Assembly (NCBI GenBank): GCA_025999275.1
Contig: AP024680.1
Span: 318,393 to 382,392, forward strand
DNA from: Patescibacteria group bacterium
GTDB lineage: Bacteria > Patescibacteriota > Microgenomatia > UBA8517
Direction: 5' to 3'
DNA length: 64,000 nt
The notes under the pieces were generated by a model. It made no database searches. It saw only the letters and a program-made list of their open reading frames with translations, and was not told where the DNA came from. Positions 1,361 to 56,105 of the stretch are shown piece after piece; positions within the stretch are counted from its first letter, which is position 1; every line of letters begins with the position of its first letter. The position numbers and the translations under genes are program-made.

Positions 1361-1981
1361 ATGTTTTTTGAGAGAATTATAGAAAGTTGCCAATCTAACT
1401 TTAATGGCAAAATAGAAGTTGTTTCTTCTTTGGCATGGGGAAAATATATTCGTGTTGGGGGAATTACTCAATCTGGTGGTGTTGTTGAAAAAATTTGGAG
1501 GAGTGTTTTCAAAAAGATTAAAGGCGATTTTAGAAAAATTTTGATTTTAGGTCTTGGAGGAGGGTCTGTGGCAAAGGTTTTGTGCAGCAGGTTTAAAAAA
1601 GCCAAGATAACAGGGGTGGAGATAGATCCTTTGATGGTAAATTTTGGGGAGAAGTATTTAGGCCTTGATAACTCTAAATTAAAAATTGAAATTGATGATG
1701 CCAAAAAGTGGTTTTTAGATAATAAAAAGAAGTTTGATCTTATTATTGTTGATATTTACCAAGGCAAAACTTATCCCCCCTTTTTTGAATCAGATTTGTT
1801 CCTTAAATCTTTAAAGTCCCATTTGGTTGTTGGGGGAATTGTTGTTTTTAACAGGCTTTATAGTTCCGATCTGACGGTTAGAAAATCAGCGGTTAAATTT
1901 GGTGAGAAATTGGAAAAAGAATTTAAAGAAGTGAACAGGATTTATCCTCTTGCCAATCTTATCTTTGCTTGCAGGATTTAG
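1361..1981 (+). CDS. Spermidine-synthase-like / class I methyltransferase-fold protein
   Basis: Gly-rich ILILGLGGGS, then VEIDPLMV and DLIIVDIY, resembling the spermine/spermidine synthase family. Weak recognition from motifs only. Confidence 0.4.
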   Translation: MFFERIIESCQSNFNGKIEVVSSLAWGKYIRVGGITQSGGVVEKIWRSVFKKIKGDFRKILILGLGGGSVAKVLCSRFKKAKITGVEIDPLMVNFGEKYLGLDNSKLKIEIDDAKKWFLDNKKKFDLIIVDIYQGKTYPPFFESDLFLKSLKSHLVVGGIVVFNRLYSSDLTVRKSAVKFGEKLEKEFKEVNRIYPLANLIFACRI

Positions 1982-2373
1982 CGGTAGTAAAAAGAACACT
2001 CTCCTGTTATTGGATCACAGCGAAAGACTTTTGTTTTATTTTGCTGATAAAGCTTTTGCTGTGGGAGTTTTCCTTTAATGCCTTTCCATTGTGGAATTTG
2101 GCTTTCTATCCATTTGTCAAATGTGGGGGAAACAGATGCTATTGAATAAAGAAAGGCCAAAACTATCAAAAGAAAGCTAAAAAGGTGAAAAATTGAGTTT
2201 TTGCCAAAAGCAATTTTTACTCCCCAAAGAATTATAATTAATGGCCAAAACTTAAAGAGAATTTGCCAGACATTCCAAGGCAGGACACCAAAATTGTTAA
2301 GAAGCAAGACAATACCCACTAAAACAAGGATCAAAGCATCGAAGATATCTTTTTCATCTGTTGTTTCGTTCAT
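1978..2373 (-). CDS. Hypothetical integral membrane protein
   Basis: 131-aa ORF with 3-4 hydrophobic helices. Its stop overlaps the downstream pspC-domain gene start, so the two look co-transcribed. Confidence 0.4.
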   Translation of the reverse strand: MNETTDEKDIFDALILVLVGIVLLLNNFGVLPWNVWQILFKFWPLIIILWGVKIAFGKNSIFHLFSFLLIVLAFLYSIASVSPTFDKWIESQIPQWKGIKGKLPQQKLYQQNKTKVFRCDPITGECSFYYR

Positions 2374-2801
2374 TTTTTAAATATGATTCCAAAGGCGATG
2401 ATAATCAAAACAATTGGCCAAAGCTTGAAGATTTGTTCAAGTCTGAAAATCCCAAAATTTTCAAACAAGAATAATAAACCAATTAAAGCAAGCATTAAGC
2501 CAAAAAGATACCTTCCTTCATCTTTTTTGGCATAGCTTCTGCCTTTCTCAATTAGATCTTGTGCTTCTTCTTTTATTTCTTCTGCATTTTCTTTTACCGA
2601 AACTTTTGTTTTTTTATCAGATGGGATAATGAGCCAAAGAACAAGATAAAGAAGGATGCCCGATCCGCCAAAGATGGTGATGAGTATGAAAATTATTCTT
2701 ATTAAAGTGGCGTCTATATCAAAATATTCGCCCAATCCACCACAAACTCCGCCGATAAGTCTATTTGTTTTTGAGCGTATTAATATTTTTTCTTTTGCCA
2801 T
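2370..2801 (-). CDS. pspC: PspC-domain membrane protein
   Basis: N-terminal LIRSKTNRLIGGVCGGLGEYFDIDATLIRIIFILITIFGGSGILLYLVLWLIIP matches the PspC domain consensus. A second TM lies at the C-terminus. Confidence 0.75.
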   Translation of the reverse strand: MAKEKILIRSKTNRLIGGVCGGLGEYFDIDATLIRIIFILITIFGGSGILLYLVLWLIIPSDKKTKVSVKENAEEIKEEAQDLIEKGRSYAKKDEGRYLFGLMLALIGLLFLFENFGIFRLEQIFKLWPIVLIIIAFGIIFKK

Positions 2802-2868
2802 TGTTTTGATTTTAAGCTTTTGTTAATTTTCTTTCAAGATATGAATTGAGGGAGAGTAACAGTAAGAT

Positions 2869-2990
2869 TAAACTATAGACAACTATCAATACATCGATGT
2901 ATTGATAGTAATTAGAAGTGATAACCGGTCTCGTAGACTAGTACACGGATACAATGGTGTAGTTGAAAAATTATGAATAATGAATTAAGG
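2869..2990 (+). repeat. Dispersed ~125-bp intergenic repeat, copy 1, containing a perfect 22-bp palindrome ATCAATACATCGATGTATTGAT (2885..2906)
   Basis: About 90% identical to 59532..59657. Lies in the 460-bp divergent region between the pspC-domain gene and the VKOR gene. Confidence 0.7.
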
Positions 2991-3263
2991 GGTATGAATT
3001 ATGGGAAGATTGAAGATAGTAGTAAGTAGAATGTAGTAAGGGAAAAGGATATAGATTTAGGATTTAAGAATTATGAATAAAATAATTCAAAAGTTAAAAT
3101 TCAAAAGTCAAAATTACAAGTTAAAAGCCAAAAGTTTTCTTAGATAATTAAATAATTTTAAATTTTGAATTGTATTTTTGAATTTTGCCTTTTGACTTTT
3201 GACTTAGATCTATTAGGTGTCAAGCTGTTTTTGACGAAGGTGCCAACCTAAGACACCCTTAAG

Positions 3264-3728
3264 GTGCCCTTTAGATTTTTTATGTCTGTTATGATAAAAT
3301 TAACTATGGTATTGGGGAAAAAAGTTTGGTTTTATTTAATTACTTTACTTTCTTTGGTGGGGATTATTTTGGCTTCTTATCTTCTTTATAATTTTTACAA
3401 CCCCAAACCAGTTTTGTTTTGTGACATTAATGATAAAGTAAATTGTCAGGCTGTAATTTCAGGGTCTCTTTCAACTTTTGCCGGTGTACCTGTTTCTTTG
3501 GTTGGACTTATTGGATATGGGGTAATTTTATTTGCGGGGTTAACCAAAAGGGCAAAACTTGCCTTTGGAGCATCTGTTTTTGGGATGATATTTTGTCTTC
3601 GGCTTACTATTTTGGAGATTTTCTTTATTAAAGTAATTTGTCCTGTTTGTCTTGTTTGTCAAATTGTAATGCTTCTTATTTTTATTATTTCTTCTTATAT
3701 TGTTTTTTCTACTAGGTTAAGAAACTAG
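3264..3728 (+). CDS. VKOR (vitamin K epoxide reductase)-family membrane thiol-disulfide oxidoreductase
   Basis: Polytopic membrane ORF with the loop cysteine pair CDINDKVNC and a TM CxxC (ICPVCLVC), the VKOR arrangement. The real start may be an internal Met, e.g. 3306 MVLGKK. Confidence 0.5.
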   Translation: MPFRFFMSVMIKLTMVLGKKVWFYLITLLSLVGIILASYLLYNFYNPKPVLFCDINDKVNCQAVISGSLSTFAGVPVSLVGLIGYGVILFAGLTKRAKLAFGASVFGMIFCLRLTILEIFFIKVICPVCLVCQIVMLLIFIISSYIVFSTRLRN

Positions 3729-23841: not shown

Positions 23842-25074
23842 ATGGCCCAAGTTTCAAAAGCTTCTAAGAATGTTTATCTAGAGATTTTGTGTACAAGTTT
23901 TATTTCGTTCCTAAAAATTAAAAAAGATAGTTTTTTCATTTCATATAAAAATTATTTTGCTCGATTCTTTATTTTTGTATTTATTTCTTTTGCTGTCTTA
24001 TTTTTGTCTTTTTCGGAAGTTGCCGCTCAAGTGGTGATTAATGAGTTTCATCCCAATTCACCTGAGTGGGTAGAATTTTACAATAGTAGTTCTGACGTCA
24101 TAAATCTTTCTGATTTTTGGTTTGATGATGACGATAATTTTGTTTCTGATATAGGTACTTCTTCTAAAAGAAGATTGTCTGGTTTATTGAGTGGTGGCGC
24201 AACTTGCTATTTGGATCTTAATAGTTATTTAAATGATAATGGAGACAAGCCAACTATTTTTAGCTTGTCGGGGGAGATAATTGATAGTTATTCTTATATA
24301 TCATCTTTAGGAGATAAAACTTACTCTAGAGATCCTGATGGTGGTGAATGGGCTTCGGCTGGTATGGATCCGACAAAATCTCTGACCAATTGTTTGTCTC
24401 TGGCCACTCCAACTCCTACTCAAACTCCCACTCCAACACCAGTTTCCACTTCATCCTCTAATTCTTCTAGTTCAAAAGCAACGGTTAAAATAAATAGTGC
24501 CAAAGATCAAAACGGAAACGAACTTTTAGGATCGTTGAAAATTTACATCGACGGAAATTATACTGGCAATTATGCTCCAGAGACTTATACATTTTGTAGT
24601 GATTGTAAGTGTGGTAGTAATAATGTCCCTTGTGGTTTTGGCAATCACACTTTTAAAGTTGAAAAGACTGGTTATAATTCTTGGACAAAAACAGCGGAAA
24701 TAAGTGCTGATAATAATTATGAATTTGATCCAGTTTTGACTTTAGTATCTTCTAGTCCTTCTCCAACTTTGAAGGCAACTCCCACCGCAACTGCTTCAGC
24801 AACGCCAAAATCAACAACTTTTAATCTTTCAACTTCTAGCGAATCAGCGCTTCTTGCTGAGGATGTTTTTTCTAATAATAAAGGGGTTTTGGGTGCTTTT
24901 TCTGAAAGCAAGACATCAACTCCTGTTCCCAACCAATCTGATTCAAAGTTTAAATTAGCAGCTCTGTTTTTTATTATTTCGGGTCTTTCTTTTTTGGGAT
25001 CGGCCGTTTATGCTTATCTAAAGAAAAAGAAAAATGCAAAACCAGATGAGTCTAAAAGTGAAGAAGCTGGTTAA
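23842..25074 (+). CDS. Lamin-tail-domain (LTD) cell-surface protein with PEGA-like domain and C-terminal membrane anchor
   Basis: VVINEFHPNSPEWVEFYNSSSDVINLSDFWFDDDD matches the LTD consensus. A TPTPT linker follows. The Cys-rich YTGNYAPETYTF...FKVEKTGYNSWTKTAEI region looks PEGA-like. C-terminal TM with a KKKK tail. Confidence 0.6.
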   Translation: MAQVSKASKNVYLEILCTSFISFLKIKKDSFFISYKNYFARFFIFVFISFAVLFLSFSEVAAQVVINEFHPNSPEWVEFYNSSSDVINLSDFWFDDDDNFVSDIGTSSKRRLSGLLSGGATCYLDLNSYLNDNGDKPTIFSLSGEIIDSYSYISSLGDKTYSRDPDGGEWASAGMDPTKSLTNCLSLATPTPTQTPTPTPVSTSSSNSSSSKATVKINSAKDQNGNELLGSLKIYIDGNYTGNYAPETYTFCSDCKCGSNNVPCGFGNHTFKVEKTGYNSWTKTAEISADNNYEFDPVLTLVSSSPSPTLKATPTATASATPKSTTFNLSTSSESALLAEDVFSNNKGVLGAFSESKTSTPVPNQSDSKFKLAALFFIISGLSFLGSAVYAYLKKKKNAKPDESKSEEAG

Positions 25075-25444
25075 ACTTTGGGCGCCGCCTGTTTTTTGGA
25101 TGGCGCTTATTTTTTTTCTTAGCTCTCGTCCTACACTCAAAACGACTCAAATTTACTGGCAGGATTTTATTATCAAAAAAACAGCTCATTTTATTGAGTA
25201 TGCAATTTTGGCTTTTCTTTATCTCCGTGGCTTTTTGGGAAGCGGTTTTCCAAAAAAGAAGTCGTTTATTTTTGCACTTGTTCTTTGTATTTTGTATGCC
25301 GCTTCTGATGAATTTCACCAGTCTTTTATTCCCGGTCGGGAGCCAAGAATAAGGGATGTGATAATTGATACCATTGGCGCTTTTTCATCTTTGTACTATT
25401 TTGTCTTTTATAGAAAAAAGCCCTTTAAGTATTTGCAATCTTAA
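25034..25444 (+). CDS. VanZ-like family membrane protein
   Basis: DEFHQSFIPGREPRIRDVIIDTIGA matches the VanZ signature. Overlaps the end of the LTD gene, and the exact start is uncertain. Confidence 0.6.
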   Translation: MQNQMSLKVKKLVKLWAPPVFWMALIFFLSSRPTLKTTQIYWQDFIIKKTAHFIEYAILAFLYLRGFLGSGFPKKKSFIFALVLCILYAASDEFHQSFIPGREPRIRDVIIDTIGAFSSLYYFVFYRKKPFKYLQS

Positions 25445-25468: not shown

Positions 25469-26098
25469 ATGGCAAGGGAATCTGCTATTCAAAAAGAAAA
25501 GAAAAAGGTTTCTTCCTATCTTAATATTGCCGGTGAGGTCTTTATTCTTTTTTCAATCTTAATTTTGTTTTTCACCTATGGGCCGGTGACAAAAGAGGAG
25601 GTTTCCTATCAGATAAGACAAGTAGTTAAAAACAAAGAAGTCAAAGAAATCCAGCCTGTCAACACTCAATTTTCAATCGTTATTCCAAAACTTGAAGTTT
25701 CAGCGCCTGTATTTGCTTCTGTTGATCCTTTTAATCCAAGCGAATACTTGCCCGTCTTAAAAAAGGGAGTTGCTCATTCAAAATATTCCTCTTTTCCTGA
25801 CAGTTTTGGCAACACTTACCTTTTTGCCCATTCAACCGACGCTTTTTATAATGTTGGCAAATATAACGCTGTTTTTTATCTTCTTGGAAAATTAGAAAAG
25901 GGAGATGAGATAGATGTTTATTATAAGGACCAAAAATATGTTTATAGAGTATCTGATAAGAAAGTTGTTGAACCGAAGGACGTGTTTTATTTGGTCAATT
26001 CTGGAAAGGGAAATATTTTAACTCTTCAGACTTGCTATCCGCCAGGAACAACGTTAAAGCGTTTGATTGTTATTGCTAATCAGGAAGTTGGGATATAG
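25469..26098 (+). CDS. Sortase-family transpeptidase
   Basis: N-terminal TM, conserved His (YLFAHSTD) and the catalytic TLQTC (TLxTC) motif near the C-terminus. Confidence 0.75.
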   Translation: MARESAIQKEKKKVSSYLNIAGEVFILFSILILFFTYGPVTKEEVSYQIRQVVKNKEVKEIQPVNTQFSIVIPKLEVSAPVFASVDPFNPSEYLPVLKKGVAHSKYSSFPDSFGNTYLFAHSTDAFYNVGKYNAVFYLLGKLEKGDEIDVYYKDQKYVYRVSDKKVVEPKDVFYLVNSGKGNILTLQTCYPPGTTLKRLIVIANQEVGI

Positions 26099-26265
26099 TA
26101 AAATTGAACAGGCTTTTTTAGCTAAATATTGACTTTTCCTATAGCAAGTGTTATAAAGCATTTGGGTAGCCTAGCCTTATATAGATGCACAAAAATAAAA
26201 GACGGCTAATTGCCTTAATATCTGCCTTTTCGGTTTTAATTAACTCGCTCTCCTTTTAGTCTCCT

Positions 26266-29200
26266 TTGGTTGTTTTAGCTCAAGAAACACAGGAAGGGAC
26301 TCCTGTAGTTGAAAATCAGCCGCAACAGACAGAAACATCTACACCCCAGCCAACAGAATCAGTAGCTGAGACAAGTACTCCAAATCCTAGTGTTAGCCCT
26401 TCTTTAGAGCCAAGTCCTGCACCTAGCCTAGAGCCTTCTCCAATAAACAATCTTCAAACTGAAACCCCTACACCAACAGCAACACCAGCTCAGGAAGTTT
26501 TGGGAGCAGATACAAATACCACCACTCCTTTTCCCTCAACGCCGGCAAGCGAAGACAAGAATAAAGATGCTCATATCAATGCTGTGGTTTTAAGTGATGT
26601 TAGCGCCTCAAGTATTGATGAAGCTGATTTATCCTATCTTGAAAGTGCCACTAGCGCCACTTTGAGAACTGATAAATTTGACTATTCGCCGACTGATGCT
26701 GTTGTTATAACTGGCGAAGGATTTGCTCCAAATACCGAGTATGAATTGGTCATTACTTCTGGTACTGGTAATTTTAGATTTTCTGATCGTGTCACCTCTG
26801 ATGAATCAGGTGGGCTTTTCTATACCTATCAACTCGACGGCACCTACAGGCCGGAGTATAAGGCGGAAGTGTTTGATTTGTTGGGTGGTGTAGCTGCTTC
26901 GGTCAATTTTTCAGATAGTGATAAAGTTCGTCTTTGCCATCGTACCAAATCTGATAGTAACCCATATGTTTACTTAGAGGTGAATATTAAAAATAACGGA
27001 GATTTGAAAGGTGGCCACCTTAATCATACCGGACCAATATGGTATCCTGGCATTCAAGGCAAATGGGGAGATATTATCCCTCCCTATTCCAGTGGTAATT
27101 TTAACTACTCTGGGATGAACTGGGATGCTAATGGTCAAGCTATTTGGAACAATGGTTGTAAGTTGCAAATAGCTTGTCAAGAAGGTCCCAGTTGGACAAG
27201 TGATGTGATCTCTTTTAATCAAGGTAAGAATAAAGATGGTTCTGATGTACCAGAAGAAAGATCTGATCCCTATAATGCATTAGGAAAACCTGACAGTTTT
27301 GGTAATGATGTTAATTTTGTTAGTCTTGGTAAAGGTGGCTCCATTGTTCTGGTTTTTCTTGGATGGGTGAAAGATAAAGAAGGTAATGATCTTTCCTTCC
27401 ATGAGGTTACTTGGGGTAGAGAAAACTATCCTGAAGAGAAAGCAAAAGTAGAGGTAAGCCAAGATGGCGATAGTTGGTATGGAGATTGGATTGTAAGCAG
27501 TAAAGCTACAAATGGTATTGGTTATATTGATTTTTCTTCAACTAGGTTGTCTTGGGTAAAATATGTAAGGATTACCGATACTACAGATTTTAGTCTTCAT
27601 ACTAATGATGCTGATGGATATGATCTCGATGCGTTAGATGCGGTTTATCAGCTGTGTAGTTTACCTTCTCCTTCACCGACTTTATCTCCTTCTCCTACTC
27701 CAGCTCCTTATTGTGGAGATGGCGTCAAGAATGGTCAAGAACAATGCGATGGGTCTGATGGGGTTGGTCAAAATCAATTTTGTACCAAAAATTGCAAACT
27801 TATTCCAATTTATGATGGATTTCATTCTTGTCCCGCTGGAACGGTTAAAAGTCAAAGTCCTGTTTTATCAAAGACAATATCCGCAACCGATTCTGATGGA
27901 GAAACTTTTAACCTGACTGCTGGAGGAAAATATCTTTTTGAAGTTAGTGGTGTTTACAGCTATGATAAGAGCAATTCTGCTAAATGGGCCGATGCTGCCT
28001 ATGCTACTGACAATAATTGGTCTAGCGCTAGATCTGATATTGGTATTTGGGAAACAAATAGAGGTGTAACTTCTCTACTTGCTGATTTTGGTAAGGGGGT
28101 GGGTGTTGTTGAGTGGGATGATAATCAAGTATATAATTCTGACCATACTTATCAAAAGTATTATTCTCCAACTACCAATTCAGTTAAGTTCTTAATAAGC
28201 GATTGGTACGATGAATGGTACAGCTCGCCATATAATAATCAATCAGCAATGTCTGATAATTCTGGTAGCTTAAGTTTAGATGTTTATGAATGCCAACCTG
28301 TATCAGAAGTTACTGTCTGTAAATATGACAATGAAGAACACCCTTTGAGTGATTGGCGAGTTTATCTTTTAGGAGATAAAGTAGGAAATACTATTTCTGT
28401 TCCTTCTAATGGCACTGTAGTTAACGCTGGTTCTTATCCAAATGATAATTATGTTCTTTTGGCCTCGGGTACTTATAACTATGGGAATGATCGGATGAAT
28501 GCTGATGCGGCTAATTCTTATCGTTATGTTGGACTTCCTTGCAGTGGGCCAACTGATGGGTGGGTGAGTGGAGAGTCTTCTTGTATGGGAAATTATCTTT
28601 CTTTGAATTTTTCAACTAGCGGGGGGCCAACAGCTCCCGGATGGGGAGATTACTACAACCCCGATCATATATATGCAAAATTTTTTGCCGGCGGCGGTTT
28701 GAATTTAAAAGTTTGGGATAGGTGTAGTAGTAATCAAGTGGAAGGATGTTATGGTGATAATGAAGGATCTTTAAGTCTTGATATTTATAAAGGTTTTGTT
28801 GGCGATACAGGGGAAAATGGATGTGTAACATTTACTAACGTTCCTTATGGGGCATATCAATTAGGTGAAATTTTACAGGAAGGATGGCAGAAAGTCAGTG
28901 GTTCGGGTGAGGTAGTAATTGACAGTGATGAGGAAAATTTTGATTTAATTAATAATGAATTGCCTAAAAAAGGCAATCTAAAAGTTTCCAAAGTCGTTGA
29001 CTGGAAAAATGTTACGCCAGACACTTCTAAAACTTTTGAAATTTGTATAACAGGACCTTCTTATCCTAATCCTGATTGTAAAACAGCTGATTATGATGGT
29101 GAAACACTTGAATGGAAAGATATTTTAGCTGGTGATTATACTGTAACAGAAACCACTCCAACAGGCGGTTGGATAGTAACAGGGTCAGGTCAAACTGTAA

Positions 29201-32200
29201 CTGTTAATAAAGATCAGACTTCTTCTGTTGAAATAAAGAATGAAGCAAATTCGATTATCATTAAAGCCTATAAGGTGGTTTGTGATAGCGAGCAATATTT
29301 GCCAAACTGGGGAAACCATGGAAGCGTGATTGGCGCTAATACAGCTCAAAGTTTTGTTAATAATTCTCAAGGCCATTGCCGGCTTGAGGATGGATGGAAA
29401 TTCCAATATGCACCTAAGGGTTCTGGTAGTAATGGTGCATTTCAAACCAACACACAGGAGTTGGGAACTCCTTGGACAACTTTCGGTCCTACTGTTGGCG
29501 GCGAAGCAGTAGCTGTAATAAATGATATTTCTAATTTTGATGGTCGAATTGAAACGAGAGAAGTTTTTAAAGACAATACCTATATTCCTTTTTCAAACAG
29601 TAGTAATAATGTAAGTGCGGAATTTTACTGCACTGGTGATACGTATAATTATGACAACTGGGAGTGGATAAATAACCCGCAATACGGCAGCACCTACTAT
29701 TGTGTTGCTTTTAATGCCAAGAAAAGCACTGTAATTTCAGGGAGGAAGTTTAATGATTTAAATTACAATGGTAAAGATGATGAAGAGCCTGGCCTTGAAA
29801 ACTGGAAAATTTTGGCGGCTCAAAAGGTAGATGAAGTTAATGTTTCGGCAAAAGATATGCCAACAGTTTCTTCAAATATTCCTTTGATCTCTGGTCAAGA
29901 GTATCTTTTAAGAGTTTCCGGGACTTATCAAGCCGGAGATAATATTACAGCCGATGCAAAATACTCAGTTCGTAGCCCAAATACTTACTGGACTGATTAT
30001 GTTCAAAATTATCAATCTTATGGACCAACTCTTTTAGATTTGCAAATTAATAATAATTCTTATGACTGGGGAAGTTATAATCCAAATCATGTTTATTGGT
30101 TAATTCTTTCTGGTGGTGGTTCGCCAATTAATTTTAGGCTTAATGATATTTATCCATCAAATAATTCAGGATCTTTAAATGTTAAAATTTATAAAGTCAT
30201 TTCCGAAACAACTACCGCAAACGATGGAAGTTATCAGCTAACTTTAACCAGTGATCCTGGATCAGATATAATTGTGGCTGAAGAAACTCAAAGCGGTTAT
30301 ATGCAAATCACTCCAAATGGCGAAAATTTTGGTTACTGCAATGTCACTTCATACCAAGAAAATAAATGTAATTTCGGTAATGCTTTAGCTTATGGTTCAA
30401 TTTATGGTTATAAGTATGATGAAGATAGAGAAACTGGACTTGGTGGCTGGACTATATTTATAGATGATAATAATAATGGTATTTTGGATCAGGGTGAGAA
30501 AGACGCTACCACAAGTGATGATGAAAAAAACAATGGCTATTATGAGTTTAATGGTCTAACGGCAGGGACATATTCTGTTTGTGAGGTAGAGCAAGAAGGC
30601 TGGCAGAGGATGTATCCCCTTGGTTCTAACTGTCAATCTGTGACAATTACTTCTGGATCTAAATTTGAGGTTGATTTCCAAAACAGGAAAGTTGTTTTGG
30701 GGCTTAGTCTTACAAAGTCAAACGATGCCGCAACTGCCTTGTCTGCTGGAAGCCAAGTTAATTATACTTTAAAGATTAAAAATACAGGTAATCAGAAATT
30801 GACTGGAGTTATTATCAAAGATGCTCCTGCTGGTGGATTTACTTATGTTGATGATAGTGGCATTCTTGATAGCAATCCGATTAATCCTACTCAATTGGGG
30901 GGCTATCTTGACTGGTATATTGGAGATCTTGATGCAGGAGAGGAAAAAGTGTTGTCTTACAAGATGTCAACTAATAGTGGCATGATCTCTGGCATTTATC
31001 CAAATGTTGCCATAGCGACTGGAATTTATACACCGTCTGAATATCAACCTGAAGAGGTGGTTACAAATAGATCCTTGGTAGTTGAAGCATTGGCTGTTGA
31101 TGGTGACTCTGGGGAAGAAAGGGTTGAAAGCAATGCCGGTGTTCCCGTTAACTCTCAGGTTGAAATTAAGGCTCCTTTGGCTTACTCAACTGGAGTTGGG
31201 GGAACAGGGGGGCAAGTTTTGGGCGCATCAACTGAGGCCGGTGAAGTTTTGCCTGCTGCTGGTTCTGATAGCCGAATAGTTTTGTTTGCTCTCTTGGGTC
31301 TTATTTTGGGAGCTTTGCTTAAAGTTTCAGGATTAGCTCTAGAGAGAAACTGGGTAGATTATAGGAAATTAAAGAAAAATATTAAAAGAATGGGTAGTTT
31401 TATTGCAGTCTTGATTTTCCTTCTTGGTTTTGCCCCTTCTGCTAGGGCTTTCTCTGACTATGTTTATATAACTCAACTGCCAGCTTATCTAAACAAGGAA
31501 GATTTCAAAATTTCCTATTCCGCTCTTTCTGAAAACCCAATTTCTGCTCAGTTTTATATTAGGAAAGACGGGGATTCAAGCTGGAGGACTCTTGGTTCTT
31601 CTTTGTCTGGAGCCTCGGGATATGTGCAAGTTCATGGCGGGGATATTTACAATGGTGATGGTAAATATTTCTTCAAGGTGGTTATAAATAGCGGGTCGGC
31701 TGAAGATCAAACTTCAACCATAATTGACAGACAGTCTCCTGATCCAGTTCGTGATTATTGGAAAGAGAAGTTAGGGGATGGACATTACAAGCTTCATTGG
31801 AGAAATCCTGACAATGAGGATTTTGATAAGGTAATAATTTATCGCTCGGATAGTACCAATTTTACGGCTGATTCCTCAACTGAGATAGCCACAGTTTGGG
31901 GGTCAAGGAATTCTGAAATGACTTATGAGAATGCCGCAGTAGCAGGAAAAGAATACTATTTTGCCATTAGGGCAATTGATAAGGCGGGAAATGCATCAAG
32001 CGTTGTTGCTGATCCTGAGACACAAGTTTCAGCAGGTGCTGTGTTAGGTGAGTCAACGGTGGCAACCGGTTCTCCTAAAGCAGAGGTGGTCAAGATTTTG
32101 CCAAAAGAAGAAAAGAAGGGTGAGGTTTTAGGCGAGGAGAATAGAGAGGAGGAGCCAGTTTCTTCTCCAACACCTGAAGTTCAAGAACAATCAGGCGGTG

Positions 32201-32319
32201 TTTTGGGCCAGGCAATAAAATTTGCCAAAGATAGAACAAAAATTACTCTTCTTATCGCTCTTGGCCTTGGGATTGTTTCTTATTACCTGTCTCGTCTTTG
32301 GAAAAAGAATAAGAATTAA
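26266..32319 (+). CDS. Giant (2017-aa ORF) multi-domain surface adhesin; possibly two in-frame fused genes
   Basis: Thr/Pro-rich N-terminus, a Myxococcus-type Cys-rich repeat (CGDGVKNGQEQCDGSDG), several SdrD-B/CnaB-like Ca-binding folds (DDNNNGILDQGEKD, GTYSVCEV), a DUF11-like repeat (VNYTLKIKNTGNQKLTGVII), and a fibronectin-III-like module near the end. An internal LPAAG + hydrophobic + basic segment at 31248..31389 is followed by a second signal-peptide-like Met at 31390. The track start is TTG; an in-frame signal peptide ORF lies upstream at 26185, separated by a TAG. Confidence 0.7.
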   Translation: MVVLAQETQEGTPVVENQPQQTETSTPQPTESVAETSTPNPSVSPSLEPSPAPSLEPSPINNLQTETPTPTATPAQEVLGADTNTTTPFPSTPASEDKNKDAHINAVVLSDVSASSIDEADLSYLESATSATLRTDKFDYSPTDAVVITGEGFAPNTEYELVITSGTGNFRFSDRVTSDESGGLFYTYQLDGTYRPEYKAEVFDLLGGVAASVNFSDSDKVRLCHRTKSDSNPYVYLEVNIKNNGDLKGGHLNHTGPIWYPGIQGKWGDIIPPYSSGNFNYSGMNWDANGQAIWNNGCKLQIACQEGPSWTSDVISFNQGKNKDGSDVPEERSDPYNALGKPDSFGNDVNFVSLGKGGSIVLVFLGWVKDKEGNDLSFHEVTWGRENYPEEKAKVEVSQDGDSWYGDWIVSSKATNGIGYIDFSSTRLSWVKYVRITDTTDFSLHTNDADGYDLDALDAVYQLCSLPSPSPTLSPSPTPAPYCGDGVKNGQEQCDGSDGVGQNQFCTKNCKLIPIYDGFHSCPAGTVKSQSPVLSKTISATDSDGETFNLTAGGKYLFEVSGVYSYDKSNSAKWADAAYATDNNWSSARSDIGIWETNRGVTSLLADFGKGVGVVEWDDNQVYNSDHTYQKYYSPTTNSVKFLISDWYDEWYSSPYNNQSAMSDNSGSLSLDVYECQPVSEVTVCKYDNEEHPLSDWRVYLLGDKVGNTISVPSNGTVVNAGSYPNDNYVLLASGTYNYGNDRMNADAANSYRYVGLPCSGPTDGWVSGESSCMGNYLSLNFSTSGGPTAPGWGDYYNPDHIYAKFFAGGGLNLKVWDRCSSNQVEGCYGDNEGSLSLDIYKGFVGDTGENGCVTFTNVPYGAYQLGEILQEGWQKVSGSGEVVIDSDEENFDLINNELPKKGNLKVSKVVDWKNVTPDTSKTFEICITGPSYPNPDCKTADYDGETLEWKDILAGDYTVTETTPTGGWIVTGSGQTVTVNKDQTSSVEIKNEANSIIIKAYKVVCDSEQYLPNWGNHGSVIGANTAQSFVNNSQGHCRLEDGWKFQYAPKGSGSNGAFQTNTQELGTPWTTFGPTVGGEAVAVINDISNFDGRIETREVFKDNTYIPFSNSSNNVSAEFYCTGDTYNYDNWEWINNPQYGSTYYCVAFNAKKSTVISGRKFNDLNYNGKDDEEPGLENWKILAAQKVDEVNVSAKDMPTVSSNIPLISGQEYLLRVSGTYQAGDNITADAKYSVRSPNTYWTDYVQNYQSYGPTLLDLQINNNSYDWGSYNPNHVYWLILSGGGSPINFRLNDIYPSNNSGSLNVKIYKVISETTTANDGSYQLTLTSDPGSDIIVAEETQSGYMQITPNGENFGYCNVTSYQENKCNFGNALAYGSIYGYKYDEDRETGLGGWTIFIDDNNNGILDQGEKDATTSDDEKNNGYYEFNGLTAGTYSVCEVEQEGWQRMYPLGSNCQSVTITSGSKFEVDFQNRKVVLGLSLTKSNDAATALSAGSQVNYTLKIKNTGNQKLTGVIIKDAPAGGFTYVDDSGILDSNPINPTQLGGYLDWYIGDLDAGEEKVLSYKMSTNSGMISGIYPNVAIATGIYTPSEYQPEEVVTNRSLVVEALAVDGDSGEERVESNAGVPVNSQVEIKAPLAYSTGVGGTGGQVLGASTEAGEVLPAAGSDSRIVLFALLGLILGALLKVSGLALERNWVDYRKLKKNIKRMGSFIAVLIFLLGFAPSARAFSDYVYITQLPAYLNKEDFKISYSALSENPISAQFYIRKDGDSSWRTLGSSLSGASGYVQVHGGDIYNGDGKYFFKVVINSGSAEDQTSTIIDRQSPDPVRDYWKEKLGDGHYKLHWRNPDNEDFDKVIIYRSDSTNFTADSSTEIATVWGSRNSEMTYENAAVAGKEYYFAIRAIDKAGNASSVVADPETQVSAGAVLGESTVATGSPKAEVVKILPKEEKKGEVLGEENREEEPVSSPTPEVQEQSGGVLGQAIKFAKDRTKITLLIALGLGIVSYYLSRLWKKNKN

Positions 32320-33041: not shown

Positions 33042-33059
33042 CAAGGTCCGTCCTTGTCA
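33039..33059. terminator. GC-rich palindromic hairpin, family B (bidirectional position)
   Basis: TGACAAGGTCCGTCCTTGTCA incorporates the pyrH TGA and sits between convergent pyrH and the GT-C gene. Confidence 0.55.
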
Positions 33060-34538
33060 GTTGATAATTTGATATAAAAGTAAGGAATCTGTTGGGTTTT
33101 CTTTCCATGGAGGCTTGGGAATCTCTTTTATTAAGTTTAGATTGGGATTTTGAACAAGGTTTGATTTGTGGATTACAAAATAAACAGGTTTTTCTTTAAG
33201 TTTTTCATAAACATAAGATTCGATTTGTGAGCTACTATACCAAACTTCAATATTTTTGTTTTTGCCGATATAAATCTCAAGTCCGTCAGGCAATGTTCCA
33301 AAGGCACCAGCTGTAACAACTAAAATTTTTTGATCTTTTGCTTTCTCTTTTAGAAAATTAGCCATTTCTTTTATTCCATAACCTGCTGTCCATCCTTCAA
33401 AGTACCCATCTTTTTCTTTTTTAGGTAGATTGGCTTGCCATGGTTTTGTAATAAGCTGATAATCAAAAATTATTGCTGGGATTAAGACCAGAGTGGTTAG
33501 AGTGCTAAAAACAGCCTTTCTGTTTTTGGCTATTTTTTCTGATATTTCTGCAAAAGACCAACTGGCAAGAAAGATGAATGTAACTATACTTGGTAGAATA
33601 TATCTTGCCGTGTAGGTTTTAAGAAGAGCAGTAAGTATAATGAAAGGAATAGCTCCCCAAAGGAAAATTATTATGTTTTCCTTTTTCTTTTTGTAAAGGG
33701 AGAGAAAAATTGCAAATATAAAAGTTAAGAAAACAGGCCAAGTCATCAATTTGGTAAGAAAAACAAAACCTTCTTTGGTGTTGCCTATAAATGGATCAAG
33801 TGGTTTCTCCCAGAGTCGCGATATGGGGAAATGATAATACTCATTTCTTTTTCCAAGTTGTTTGAAATAGGGGCTAATTCTAAGTGAATTGTATAGGCAC
33901 AATCCTATTATTGCTGATAAAGTAAGTCCCAAAATTGATTTTGTTAGTTTCTTTTTATTTTTAAAGTCGGCTTTTATTAAAGCTAGTGGAAGTAGAAAGA
34001 AATTAAACATTCCGGGTGTTTTGGTTAGTATTGAAGCTCCTAAGATTAGTCCTAGAAGTATTATATTTTTGGCTGACGGTTTTTCTACCGTCTCAAGAGC
34101 AAGAATTAGTGACCAAAATGAAAAAGCAGCAAGCATCGAATCGGTTAATGCCATTCGATCAAAAAATACCAAAAATGGAGTAAAGGTAAAAAATAGAGCA
34201 GCAACCAAAGCTGTTTTTGGTTGGAAATACCTTTTGGAGAGATAGTATGCTCCATAAAGTGTGAGAAGGCTTATTAAGATTGAGACTATTCTTCCTGCCA
34301 GAAGAGGATCGGATATAATTTTTAAGCTTGGCACAACCAACCACATAAATAGTGGAGTTTTACCATCGACAAGTGGAATAAATAAATTAATTTTGGGATT
34401 TTCGATGATTTTTTGCGCCCAATGGATATAGATTGCCTCATCACAAAATACTGGCTGTAGATTGAGGTTGTAGGTTCTGATCAGAAGGTAAAATGTGATG
34501 ATTAAAATGGCAGATAAAAAAAGTTTTTTGTGCTTCAT
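33057..34538 (-). CDS. GT-C-fold glycosyltransferase (ArnT/PMT family, GT39/GT83-like)
   Basis: Polytopic, with the N-terminal loop motif VFCDEAIYIHWAQKI (DE..Y) characteristic of ArnT/PMT-type lipid-linked-sugar transferases. 493 aa. Confidence 0.6.
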   Translation of the reverse strand: MKHKKLFLSAILIITFYLLIRTYNLNLQPVFCDEAIYIHWAQKIIENPKINLFIPLVDGKTPLFMWLVVPSLKIISDPLLAGRIVSILISLLTLYGAYYLSKRYFQPKTALVAALFFTFTPFLVFFDRMALTDSMLAAFSFWSLILALETVEKPSAKNIILLGLILGASILTKTPGMFNFFLLPLALIKADFKNKKKLTKSILGLTLSAIIGLCLYNSLRISPYFKQLGKRNEYYHFPISRLWEKPLDPFIGNTKEGFVFLTKLMTWPVFLTFIFAIFLSLYKKKKENIIIFLWGAIPFIILTALLKTYTARYILPSIVTFIFLASWSFAEISEKIAKNRKAVFSTLTTLVLIPAIIFDYQLITKPWQANLPKKEKDGYFEGWTAGYGIKEMANFLKEKAKDQKILVVTAGAFGTLPDGLEIYIGKNKNIEVWYSSSQIESYVYEKLKEKPVYFVIHKSNLVQNPNLNLIKEIPKPPWKENPTDSLLLYQIIN

Positions 34539-34830: not shown

Positions 34831-35826
34831 ATGTCTATCTATAATTTTTTAGTTCATCTTTTTATACCTCATTATTCCAATAATCAAAAACCAAAGCTTT
34901 TACATCCTTCGACTTTGTTGGTTTTTGCTTTTATCTTGTCTTTTTTGCAGGTCTTATTGCATTTTCTTCCCAAAGCTGGAGTTCGGGTTTTGGGGTATGC
35001 GGCTAATATTTCAGTTGATGAGGTTTTGCGTTTAACAAATCAAAAAAGGCAGGAAGCAGGTTTACCTCCTCTTAAACTTGATCCGGTTTTAAATCAAGCT
35101 GCCAAAAACAAGGGGGAGGACATGCTTGCCAAAGATTATTGGGCTCATGTTTCTCCTGACGGAGTTGAACCTTGGAAGTTTTTTCTTGATGCTGGTTATA
35201 AATACCGGTATGCAGGTGAAAATTTAGCGCGTGATTTTTCAAACGCCGCTTCGGCTGTCGATGCTTGGATGGCTTCACCTTCACACCGAGAAAACCTACT
35301 TTCGCCAAAATATGAGGATGTTGGTTTGGCTGTAGTTGAGGGTGATTTGGGTGGGGTTGATACAACTATAATAGTTCAGCTTTTTGGGACAAGGTTGGCA
35401 GGGAGTGGAGAGGTTAGTCCAGTTGCTAAGAAAGAAGAGCGGACTCTATTGTCTGCAAAGGCAAAGGTTCAAGAGCAAGAAATAAAACCAACCCCTATAC
35501 CTGATGAATATAAAAAATCAGAAATTGAGCTTTCCCCGATTCCTGTGTTTGAGGTTGGTAAACCAGTAGTGCTTGAGGCGGGTAGCGCCTTGGGTGAAAA
35601 CAATTTTGCAACACCACTTCCTGCATTTTTAATTTCTCCATTTGGTTTATTTAAGAGTCTGTCTTTGTATCTAACACTGGTATTGATTCTGGTATTTACA
35701 ATTGATGCAATAATAGTATCAAGGAAGAATATTACAAGGGTCTCGGGTCGTTCTTTTGCTCATATTTCTTTTTTGGGAATGATTTTGGCAGTGATTTTAA
35801 TTCTTAGGGCAGGAAAAATATTATGA
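34831..35826 (+). CDS. CAP/SCP/PR-1-like (YkwD-type) secreted domain protein with C-terminal membrane segments
   Basis: The CAP domain reads RLTNQKRQEAGLPPLKLDPVLNQAAKNKGEDMLAKDYWAHVSPDG...ASPSHRENLLSPKYEDVGLAV. N-terminal TM, and two C-terminal TMs. Confidence 0.7.
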   Translation: MSIYNFLVHLFIPHYSNNQKPKLLHPSTLLVFAFILSFLQVLLHFLPKAGVRVLGYAANISVDEVLRLTNQKRQEAGLPPLKLDPVLNQAAKNKGEDMLAKDYWAHVSPDGVEPWKFFLDAGYKYRYAGENLARDFSNAASAVDAWMASPSHRENLLSPKYEDVGLAVVEGDLGGVDTTIIVQLFGTRLAGSGEVSPVAKKEERTLLSAKAKVQEQEIKPTPIPDEYKKSEIELSPIPVFEVGKPVVLEAGSALGENNFATPLPAFLISPFGLFKSLSLYLTLVLILVFTIDAIIVSRKNITRVSGRSFAHISFLGMILAVILILRAGKIL

Positions 35827-55433: not shown

Positions 55434-56105
55434 ATGAATTCAAAGAGGTTTTTGCTTTTCTTTTTACCTTTGGTTTTTCTCTTTCTTGCAGCATTTGCTG
55501 TCTGGCAGAATAAAAAGCTTTTGTATCAATTTGGTTGTTGCAAACAGATAAATTATTCAGGCCAGCTTGATTTAGCATCAAGAAGAGGTGTTTTTGATGG
55601 CAAAGAAGTATCTGTGCCTGATGAGGTGTTTAAAGAAGATAAGTATTATGCTCAGGTTTTGGGAGCAACAAGTGGAGAAAAAAGAATTGAGGTAAGCATT
55701 AATGAACAAAAATTAAGAGCTTGGGAGGGTGATAAACTCTTTTTAGAAACACCTGTTTCTACAGGTCTTCGCTTTTGGCCAACACCTAAAGGTGAGTTTA
55801 GAATCTGGATTAAATTAAGAGCAACAAAGATGGAGGGGGGAGTGGGAAAATATTATTACAATCTTCCCAATGTTCCCTATGTAATGTTCTTTGAGAATGA
55901 TGAAATTCCTGGATGGCGAGGTTATGGCATCCACGGAGCTTATTGGCATAATGACTTTGGTACTCCCAGAAGTCATGGCTGTGTAAATTTGCCAGTTGAT
56001 GTAGCAAGACAGCTTTATTATTGGGCAGACCCTGTTTTGCCGGAAGGTAAGACTTCTGTTATAACTACAACTGAAAATCAGGGAACGAAAATAATTATAT
56101 ATTGA
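55434..56105 (+). CDS. L,D-transpeptidase (YkuD fold)
   Basis: Signal/TM at the N-terminus, and a catalytic His/Cys region with YGIHGAYW followed by SHGCVNLP. Confidence 0.75.
   Translation: MNSKRFLLFFLPLVFLFLAAFAVWQNKKLLYQFGCCKQINYSGQLDLASRRGVFDGKEVSVPDEVFKEDKYYAQVLGATSGEKRIEVSINEQKLRAWEGDKLFLETPVSTGLRFWPTPKGEFRIWIKLRATKMEGGVGKYYYNLPNVPYVMFFENDEIPGWRGYGIHGAYWHNDFGTPRSHGCVNLPVDVARQLYYWADPVLPEGKTSVITTTENQGTKIIIY

Follow-up and report, generated by a model that had tools for sequence, protein, structure and literature searches.

Sorting signals recognized by sortases are normally defined as C-terminal elements. The closest precedent for an internal one is found in the streptococcal Zmp/IgA1 proteases, which are described (PMC3518915, citing Bender & Weiser 2006) as carrying a signal peptide, LPXTG, two transmembrane (TM) segments and a proposed second signal peptidase site. 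We analyzed a giant open reading frame (ORF) with an internal arrangement of this kind in a 64,000-nt stretch of DNA from a Patescibacteria group bacterium (GCA_025999275.1, AP024680.1 positions 318,393-382,392, forward strand); this whole stretch is referred to as the window. The ORF (26266..32319, + strand) is the longest in the window, and its product is 2017 aa long. From sequence comparison we lean toward the view that it is a natural two-product precursor of a sortase cassette conserved across Patescibacteria (Candidate Phyla Radiation, CPR), from which sortase and signal peptidase I would yield a wall-linked adhesin and a membrane-anchored fibronectin type III (FN3) protein. On this view, a large branch of the uncultivated bacteria shares a conserved design in which an internal sorting signal is coupled to a re-export signal.

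The Zmp anchors (IgA1 protease/ZmpA, ZmpB, ZmpC and ZmpD) share with the window ORF the order of elements, in which a sorting signal that is not C-terminal is followed by a re-export signal. However, in Zmp a short part precedes LPXTG and the functional protein lies downstream, whereas the window ORF has an adhesin of ∼1650 aa upstream and a small tandem-FN3 module with a third TM segment downstream. The Zmp proteins contain a HEXXH zinc metalloprotease domain and have the anchor near the N-terminus; in the window ORF the anchor begins at aa 1662 of 2017, and a motif scan of the whole ORF found no HExxH. Zmp proteins occur in Firmicutes and the window system in Patescibacteria, which are unrelated lineages, and in the latter the two halves also exist as separate genes. 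Compared with the Zmp-type internal sorting signal, the apparently new features are the other lineage, the reversed order of large and small parts, the third TM segment and the natural occurrence of one-gene and two-gene forms.

Like the canonical LPXTG sorting signal of sortase A, C, D and E substrates, that of the window consists of a pentapeptide, a ∼20-aa hydrophobic segment and a basic tail, and, like canonical LPXTG proteins, the ORF has SpaA/DUF11-type stalk domains before the signal and an adjacent sortase gene. It differs by the internal position, the Ala at P1, a VLGA(S/T)T box and a sortase outside the curated classes. Dedicated sortase-substrate cassettes are known from pilus islands with class C sortases and from single-target sortase systems. 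The window likewise links one sortase to one giant substrate, with class C sortases as the nearest structures; unlike pilus islands, it has no major pilin, and its small partner has no LPxTG and is TM-anchored. Reading of the window sortase sequence revealed no lid motif at the class C position. A similar topology is described for viral glycoprotein polyproteins such as bunyavirus Gn-Gc (PMC7926653, PMC4974537), in which an ectodomain with its TM is followed by a cytoplasmic loop, an internal signal peptide that signal peptidase cuts, and a second ectodomain with its TM. This is a functional analogy with no homology, and the first cut in the window protein would be made by a sortase transpeptidase, not by a protease. 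Sortases are reported to be near-ubiquitous in Microgenomates (PMC6744442); a search of the literature on Patescibacteria/CPR sortases, LPXTG and internal sorting signals gave no description of this substrate architecture.

Anatomy of the internal junction

Junction coordinates were obtained by codon counting on the window DNA, and all elements of the ORF described here and below are on the + strand. The translation at aa ∼1650-1735 is stop-free and reads GQVLGASTEAGEV-LPAAG-SDSR-IVLFALLGLILGALLKVSGLAL-ERNWVDYRKLKKNIKR-MGSFIAVLIFLLGFAPSARA/FSDYVYI, where the slash marks a predicted cleavage site. The LPAAG at 31249..31263 is a sortase recognition motif (an LPxTG variant with Ala at P1). Relatives have LPATG, LPGTG, LPDTG or the like at this point, and LPAAG itself is common to the clade of the window (window, L006, L007, L009, L011, P0040, P0042-45 and P0051). 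The next element is TM1 (IVLFALLGLILGALLKVSGLAL, 31276..31341), the hydrophobic stop-transfer segment of the sorting signal, which is the top hydropathy peak (KD15 3.03) in a 15-residue Kyte-Doolittle scan over the whole 2017-aa ORF. The predicted cytoplasmic basic loop ERNWVDYRKLKKNIKR (31342..31389) would serve two signals at once, giving the sorting signal its charged tail and a second signal peptide its n-region. Its net charge is +5 to +6, and the inter-segment stretch including KVSGLAL scores +6. TM2 (MGSFIAVLIFLLGFAPSARA, 31390..31449) is an internal signal-peptide-like segment with a predicted signal peptidase I site at ARA/F, and its ATG at 31390 is a possible internal start. The predicted cut falls between 31449 and 31450 and leaves 289 residues beyond. 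The internal signal peptide reads KKNIKR-MGSFIAVLIFLLGF-APSARA/F, with a basic n-region, a hydrophobic h-region and small residues at -3/-1. It begins at aa 1709 of the ORF, so that it is not N-terminal unless translation initiates at 31390, and TM2 aligns with the N-terminal signal peptides of standalone homologs of ∼300 aa.

The hydropathy scan indicated three strong hydrophobic segments in the ORF (aa 1667-1693, 1706-1729 and 1990-2009) and one weak segment inside a beta domain. The sorting signal is internal and not at the extreme C-terminus, as the last Gly of the motif (aa 1666 of 2017) is followed by ∼354 residues that include a module of 309 aa. The anatomy of a sorting signal plus a signal-peptide-like segment within one stop-free ORF is thereby confirmed. 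An earlier examination of the same DNA by its letters (the sequence-only reading) had pointed to an LPxxG-like motif, a hydrophobic helix and a basic tail inside the ORF, and these are the LPAAG, TM1 and positively charged loop given above; its second claim, that a signal peptide with Met at 31390 comes right after with no stop between, agrees with the translation and the codon count.

Fused and split forms among relatives

A search with the last 309 aa returned 39 proteins, 37 of which stand alone; these are ∼300 aa long and begin with a Met and signal peptide of their own. The nearest two proteins are fused like the window (P0001, 73% identity; P0002, 51%). A profile search over 1.84 billion representative proteins gave 635 proteins at E<=1e-30; among the best 150, which were sorted for architecture, 69 are standalone (<=360 aa), ∼75 have the module at the extreme C-terminus of proteins of 419-3052 aa, and 6 are unrelated multi-FN3 proteins. 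All members that we looked up carry the database name "hypothetical protein". A scan of one genome per species detected 59 loci, almost all from Patescibacteria. We classified 57 loci, consisting of 52 from the species scan, the window and 4 contigs fetched earlier. The two parts are fused in 38/57; in these the open frame of the small module extends far upstream, across two hydrophobic segments, the short basic loop between them and an LPxTG-like motif ahead of them. The fused loci include the closed Woesebacteria genome L007 (CP055308; 72% identity), the contigs L006 and L001, and Roizman-, Shapiro-, Dojka/WS6-, Moranii- and Paceibacterota records. Many third-party metagenome-assembled genome (MAG) records with the cassette (L008-L011, L014, L017, L020 and others) are titled "uncultured Gammaproteobacteria" or "Pseudomonadales", and these titles are probably taxonomic mislabels.

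Upstream of the small gene, 19 of the 25 split-candidate loci have an LPxTG-like motif and, behind it, a hydrophobic segment with a K/R tail; the other six are mostly without usable upstream sequence or fused after all. Split genes are parted by a single in-frame stop (e.g., IKSGNKK-stop-MKLKL in L030) or by a short out-of-frame overlap, with the stop of the upstream gene abutting or overlapping the ATG of the small one. The giant gene of L002/L004 ends with ELPDTGSDTLWIIMALTMLGMGIYINRKYAKK, and its stop overlaps the ATG of the small gene by 14 nt in an A-rich tract. Orthologs split at this point, which the sequence-only reading had suggested looking for, do exist: homologs are two adjacent genes in some loci and fused in 38/57, and the motif is conserved in both states. 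The family does not consist of uniformly single polypeptides that lack motif conservation.

The junction elements are maintained in the fused genes. Exactly two uncharged segments (medians 21 and 18 aa) are present in 38/38 fused loci, and in all of them the TM1 counterpart is an uncharged segment of 15-25 aa. The loop between the two segments is 3-23 aa long with a net charge of +2 to +11 (median +4; 38/38), and 46-62 aa separate the motif Gly from the -1 Ala of the predicted cleavage site. The motifs of the 38 fused loci are 28 LPxTG, 5 LPxAG, 3 MPxTG and 2 LGAATG, Ala at P1 being atypical. At the predicted signal peptidase site the -1 residue is Ala in 57/57 loci (38/38 fused and 19/19 split), and the -3 residue is V, A, T, S, I or L in 56/57, with fused equal to split. 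Such ordered elements, recurring with tight geometry in 38 independent fused loci, are far beyond chance. The invariant -1 Ala of the fused genes is the strongest single argument for use of the internal cleavage site.

These data also bear on the possibility that the ORF encodes an unprocessed three-pass membrane protein, in which the hairpin would be structural only, the two ectodomains would stay in one chain and LPAAG would be a non-cleaved relic. The change of P1 from Thr to Ala in the window clade and the replacement of LPxTG by VLGAATG in some relatives are compatible with such a protein, and cleavage of a two-product precursor is only predicted. However, LPAAG shows conservation rather than decay over an identity range of ∼40% to 95% (window, L006, L007, L009, L011 and P0040-P0051), a dedicated sortase is linked in 52 loci, and split lineages make two proteins from the same elements. 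The -1 Ala, invariant in fused genes, is hard to explain without signal peptidase cleavage. We consider a three-pass protein unlikely.

Met is enriched at the start of TM2 (9.6% vs. 2.6%; 3.7-fold in the first three residues) and is found there in 21/38 fused genes, including the window. The enrichment would be expected if the locus contained two cistrons in one frame, the FN3 protein being made mainly by internal initiation at ATG 31390 with its own signal peptide and the read-through fusion being incidental; the 21/38 genes would then have signal peptides of 18-27 aa. As at other gene starts, the leader ahead of 31390 is A-rich, in a window where Shine-Dalgarno (SD)-like sites are rare, and, given an in-frame TAG at 26257 (see below), an internal start would be the sole route to the small protein in this copy. 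On the other hand, 17/38 fused genes have no Met at this position, including the closest complete genome L007 and L006, and the Met enrichment is confounded by shared ancestry. Ribosomes coming from upstream would not be stopped, so the fused precursor would still be made and need processing. Two cistrons in one frame are, in our estimate, rather improbable. A missing SD site before 31390 was dropped as an argument against the internal start, because this genome hardly uses such sites: an SD-like motif precedes only 8/58 window ORFs, and the leaders are A/T-rich.

It is extremely improbable that the fused frame is a recent accident, either a sequencing/assembly error or a fresh loss of a stop or a frameshift joining two genes. 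The closest split relatives overlap by just 14 nt in an A-rich tract, where a single indel could fuse the genes, and this copy bears another lesion, the TAG at 26257. But the same frame is present in the independent assemblies L066, L006, L007, L001 and L009/L010 (module identity 95%, 73%, 72%, 51% and ∼40%, respectively), and the fused frame occurs across several phylum-level lineages. L066, sampled independently and 80-95% identical to the window, shares its gene order and frame, and the two are colinear at the codon level across the junction for the final 430 codons. The codon differences between the window and L066 modules are 28 synonymous and 7 non-synonymous. Because the same frame is found in the independent L066 and in the closed genome L007, the sequence comparison indicates that the fused frame is not an assembly error.

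A rough neighbour-joining (NJ) tree of the small module, midpoint-rooted, has fused forms in the deep clades and in all non-Microgenomates lineages, and split forms in two clades. Parsimony on this tree provisionally favors an old fused state with at least two fissions, and the window most likely retains this old state rather than a fresh stop loss. The sequence-only reading had suggested that two ancestral genes were fused by loss of a stop. Homologs do exist as two adjacent genes, but the tree suggests that the direction and recency of that event were probably wrong.

The two candidate products and their proposed processing

The predicted extracellular adhesin body (∼1650 aa, 26281..31248) has in its C-terminal part a SpaA/prealbumin-like domain (30394-30687; Pfam SpaA 7.3e-12) and a DUF11 domain (30703-31011; Pfam DUF11 2.7e-10), followed by a VLGAST pre-motif (31216-31233); VLGA(S/T)T stands before the motif in nearly all relatives. 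The centre of the adhesin, at ∼28384-30150 (aa ∼707-1294), is not colinear with P0040 aa 736-958, with both flanks being 80-83% identical, which suggests that the central binding domains of the adhesin are swapped cassette-like between strains.

The C-terminal module is 309 aa long from Met 31390 and ends with ITLLIALGLGIVSYYLS-RLWKKNKN. The residue count, the terminal TM and the KKNKN tail had been described correctly in the sequence-only reading; the single FN3-like module seen there corresponds to two tandem FN3 domains (31459..32034, divided into 31459-31725 and 31750-32034) in AlphaFold2 (AF2) and Foldseek analysis. Pfam/NCBIfam gave no family for the module at E<=0.01, the FN3 sequence model included. 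AF2 on the family alignment yielded a model with an overall pLDDT of 82 (>90 over module residues 21-210), with beta-sandwiches at module residues 24-112 and 121-215 and a helix at 272-308. Foldseek vs. PDB matched tandem FN3 pairs of neogenin, DCC and contactin (E 2.6e-8, prob 1.00). In this model the module consists of a tandem FN3 pair and, at its C-terminus, a TM anchor. The FN3 pair is followed by a disordered acidic linker (32053..32241; pLDDT <50 for module residues 222-280) with conserved G-x-VLG-EE and GGVLGQA motifs, in which G244 and L247 reach a conservation of at least 90% across the family alignment. TM3 (ITLLIALGLGIVSYYLS, hydropathy segment aa 1990-2009), the predicted cytoplasmic tail RLWKKNKN and the stop codon occupy 32242..32319, and a C-terminal TM with a basic tail is found throughout the small-module family alignment.

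Two features of the module differ in the window clade. In 46/57 family members the first FN3 domain contains a pair of Cys residues, at module positions 55 and 79, where the window clade has F55/V79. Most members have a QPK(S/T)PTN box, loosely resembling a pilin motif, a few residues past the predicted cleavage site, where the window clade has QLPAYLN.

The short motif (E/Q/G)VLG(A/E)(S/T) is repeated in linkers of extracytoplasmic window proteins. Within the giant protein it occurs at 31216-31233, 26497-26505, 32041-32049, 32125-32133 and 32200-32208, and in other ORFs at aa 349 of 23842..25074, aa 75 of 55434..56105 and aa 53 of 34831..35826. The VLG-type motif precedes LPxTG in almost all relatives and is at least 90% conserved in the small-module linker. 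In L012, L052, P0063, P0068, P0084 and others, a second VLGAATG stands in place of LPxTG. The VLG-type motif may be an extended sortase recognition element.

The giant LPxTG-type adhesin, the small FN3/TM protein and a dedicated sortase are always encoded side by side. A membrane hairpin (TM1, a short net-positive loop, and TM2 with a strict AxA-type site) connects the adhesin and the FN3/TM protein within a single reading frame in about half to two-thirds of lineages, that of the window included. For the two-product precursor we propose the following route. The N-terminal signal peptide would start Sec export of the adhesin; TM1 would halt transfer, running out-to-in, and the basic loop would be kept in the cytoplasm. 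TM2 would re-initiate export, running in-to-out, with the AxA site at the outer face and the FN3 pair outside, and TM3 with the KKNKN tail would anchor the C-terminus, with the tail inside. The inferred topology appears self-consistent under the positive-inside rule. We further infer cleavage at LPAAG and ARA/F: the neighbouring sortase would cut LPAA/G and pass the adhesin to the wall or another amine acceptor, and signal peptidase I would cut after ARA/F. The products would be the same two mature proteins as in split lineages, plus a discarded hairpin peptide of ∼60 aa. Because the elements at the junction are cytoplasmic and rich in Lys, with A-rich coding DNA, a single stop or frameshift would interconvert the fused and split forms, and fusion and fission may be nearly neutral toggles. 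With the fused form, adhesin and FN3 partner would necessarily be delivered together at a 1:1 ratio.

As its other possibility, the sequence-only reading had offered a designed arrangement, in which sortase splits a wall-linked adhesin from a membrane-retained piece. The comparative data favor this arrangement, with cleavage being predicted, because fused genes from several Patescibacteria lineages keep the sorting motif, the positive loop and the strict -3/-1 site, and a dedicated sortase is linked. The occurrence of the same parts as one gene or two in sister lineages provides a natural control and argues for identical mature products. The comparison defines an unannotated three-part cassette of sortase, giant adhesin and tandem-FN3 anchor protein, with concrete predictions for the cleavage sites. 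The display of the largest surface proteins on ultra-small episymbionts could plausibly centre on this cassette. For annotation the comparison carries a warning, since gene callers will merge these genes in some cases and split them in others, and the small partner is without a Pfam or NCBIfam model.

Several points speak against a processed two-product precursor. All processing steps are derived from sequence. The P1 residue in the window clade is Ala and not Thr (LPAAG); a literature search for natural sortases cutting LPxAG gave no support, and the term "LPAAG" gave no relevant match. The window sortase fits no defined class. The enriched Met at the TM2 start, together with rare SD use (8/58), leaves room for independent translation of the small module. 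The ancestral fused state is a parsimony-level proposal, as it comes from an NJ tree with midpoint rooting. In this copy the N-terminal signal peptide is broken by a TAG; if the TAG is real, the adhesin would not be exported here.

The FN3 module might also serve as a covalent acceptor or base for the class-C-like sortase, with the LPxT-adhesin being joined to a module Lys or to the new N-terminus left by signal peptidase, but we regard this role as quite doubtful. The outcome would be a two-piece membrane-anchored "tip adhesin on a stalk" made in cis by hairpin excision, a peptidoglycan-independent "protein splicing" by sortase plus signal peptidase, and such a product seems similarly dubious. 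A search of the small module for an invariant Lys as a pilin-like nucleophile found none (best K125, 51/57, and K187, 48/57). That the best-conserved lysines are not invariant and that the QPK(S/T)PTN box of the main clade is absent in the window clade are points against an acceptor role.

N-terminal signal peptide, sortase and gene neighbourhood

The sequence-only reading had not noticed the sortase gene directly upstream or the true signal peptide at ATG 26185 with its TAG. An N-terminal Sec signal peptide, MHKNKRRLIALISAFSVLINSLSF-stop-SPLVVLA/QE (26185..26280), is in frame with the giant ORF and interrupted by the in-frame TAG. The real start of the giant protein is ATG 26185, and the listed start TTG 26266 is merely the first start codon past the TAG. 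The nonsense codon (26257..26259) is codon 25 of the signal peptide; at the aligned position L066 has TGG (Trp) and L007 has TAT (Tyr). The signal peptide is intact in the close ortholog P0040/L066 (MNKNKRRLIALISAFSVLINSLSFWSPLIVLAQETQ), in L007, where it reads MNKKIVFKLFSLVSAFSILFNLFYTPLYVLAQET, and in P0042 and P0051. An exact-pattern scan of metagenome contigs around TAG 26257 for polymorphism gave 0 matches, and an exact look-up of the window sortase protein found none on record, so the TAG can be assessed against orthologs only. Recoding of TAG was rejected because TAG is the ordinary stop of 12/58 window ORFs (stop usage TAA 29, TGA 17, TAG 12; G+C 35%). Since the other 2017 codons are intact, comparison with the orthologs points to a sequencing error or, alternatively, to a nonsense mutation that arose very recently.

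The dedicated sortase (25469..26098, + strand; 209 aa) has an N-terminal membrane anchor and the catalytic-Cys motif TLQTC followed by KRLIV, and it matches Pfam PF04203 (E 4.9e-24). It passes the generic NCBIfam model TIGR01076 (55.8 bits vs. a cutoff of 39.35). No NCBIfam sortase class model reaches its cutoff; classes C and D are the best partial matches, the class C model NF033745 scoring 60.9 bits vs. a cutoff of 160. The nearest solved structures are class C sortases, weakly (E ∼3e-7). In 52 loci a sortase homolog directly flanks the cassette, on its upstream or its downstream side. In the window clade it is directly upstream of the giant gene and in most other lineages directly 3' of the small module; downstream position is seen in L013-L061, and upstream position in the window, L002 and L007-L012. 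Judged from these gene orders, the cassette has been rearranged yet stayed linked to the sortase.

A YkuD L,D-transpeptidase is encoded within the window, which makes a cell wall plausible, and peptidoglycan is likely present. A motif search of the window for signal peptidase I boxes found none apart from a single unrelated box-B-like match. In the fused relative L001 (GCA_042570525.1), a Peptidase_M73 (camelysin/TasA-like) gene and a small Peptidase_S24/S26-like gene lie directly downstream of the cassette (1932-3510). The product of the latter is possibly a SipW-type signal peptidase; both L001 calls are weak precomputed Pfam matches.

The gene order in the unfused L002 and L004 is LTD protein, VanZ, sortase, giant SpaA/DUF11 protein, small protein and CAP protein, and the window neighbourhood matches it. 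The neighbours of the window cassette (23842..25074, 25034..25444, 34831..35826 and 33057..34538) encode a lamin-tail-domain/PEGA surface protein with a C-terminal TM, a VanZ-family protein, a CAP-domain protein with C-terminal TMs and a PMT-family glycosyltransferase. Relatives also have the lamin-tail/PEGA, VanZ and CAP neighbours beside the cassette. The neighbourhood suggests a larger surface-display locus.

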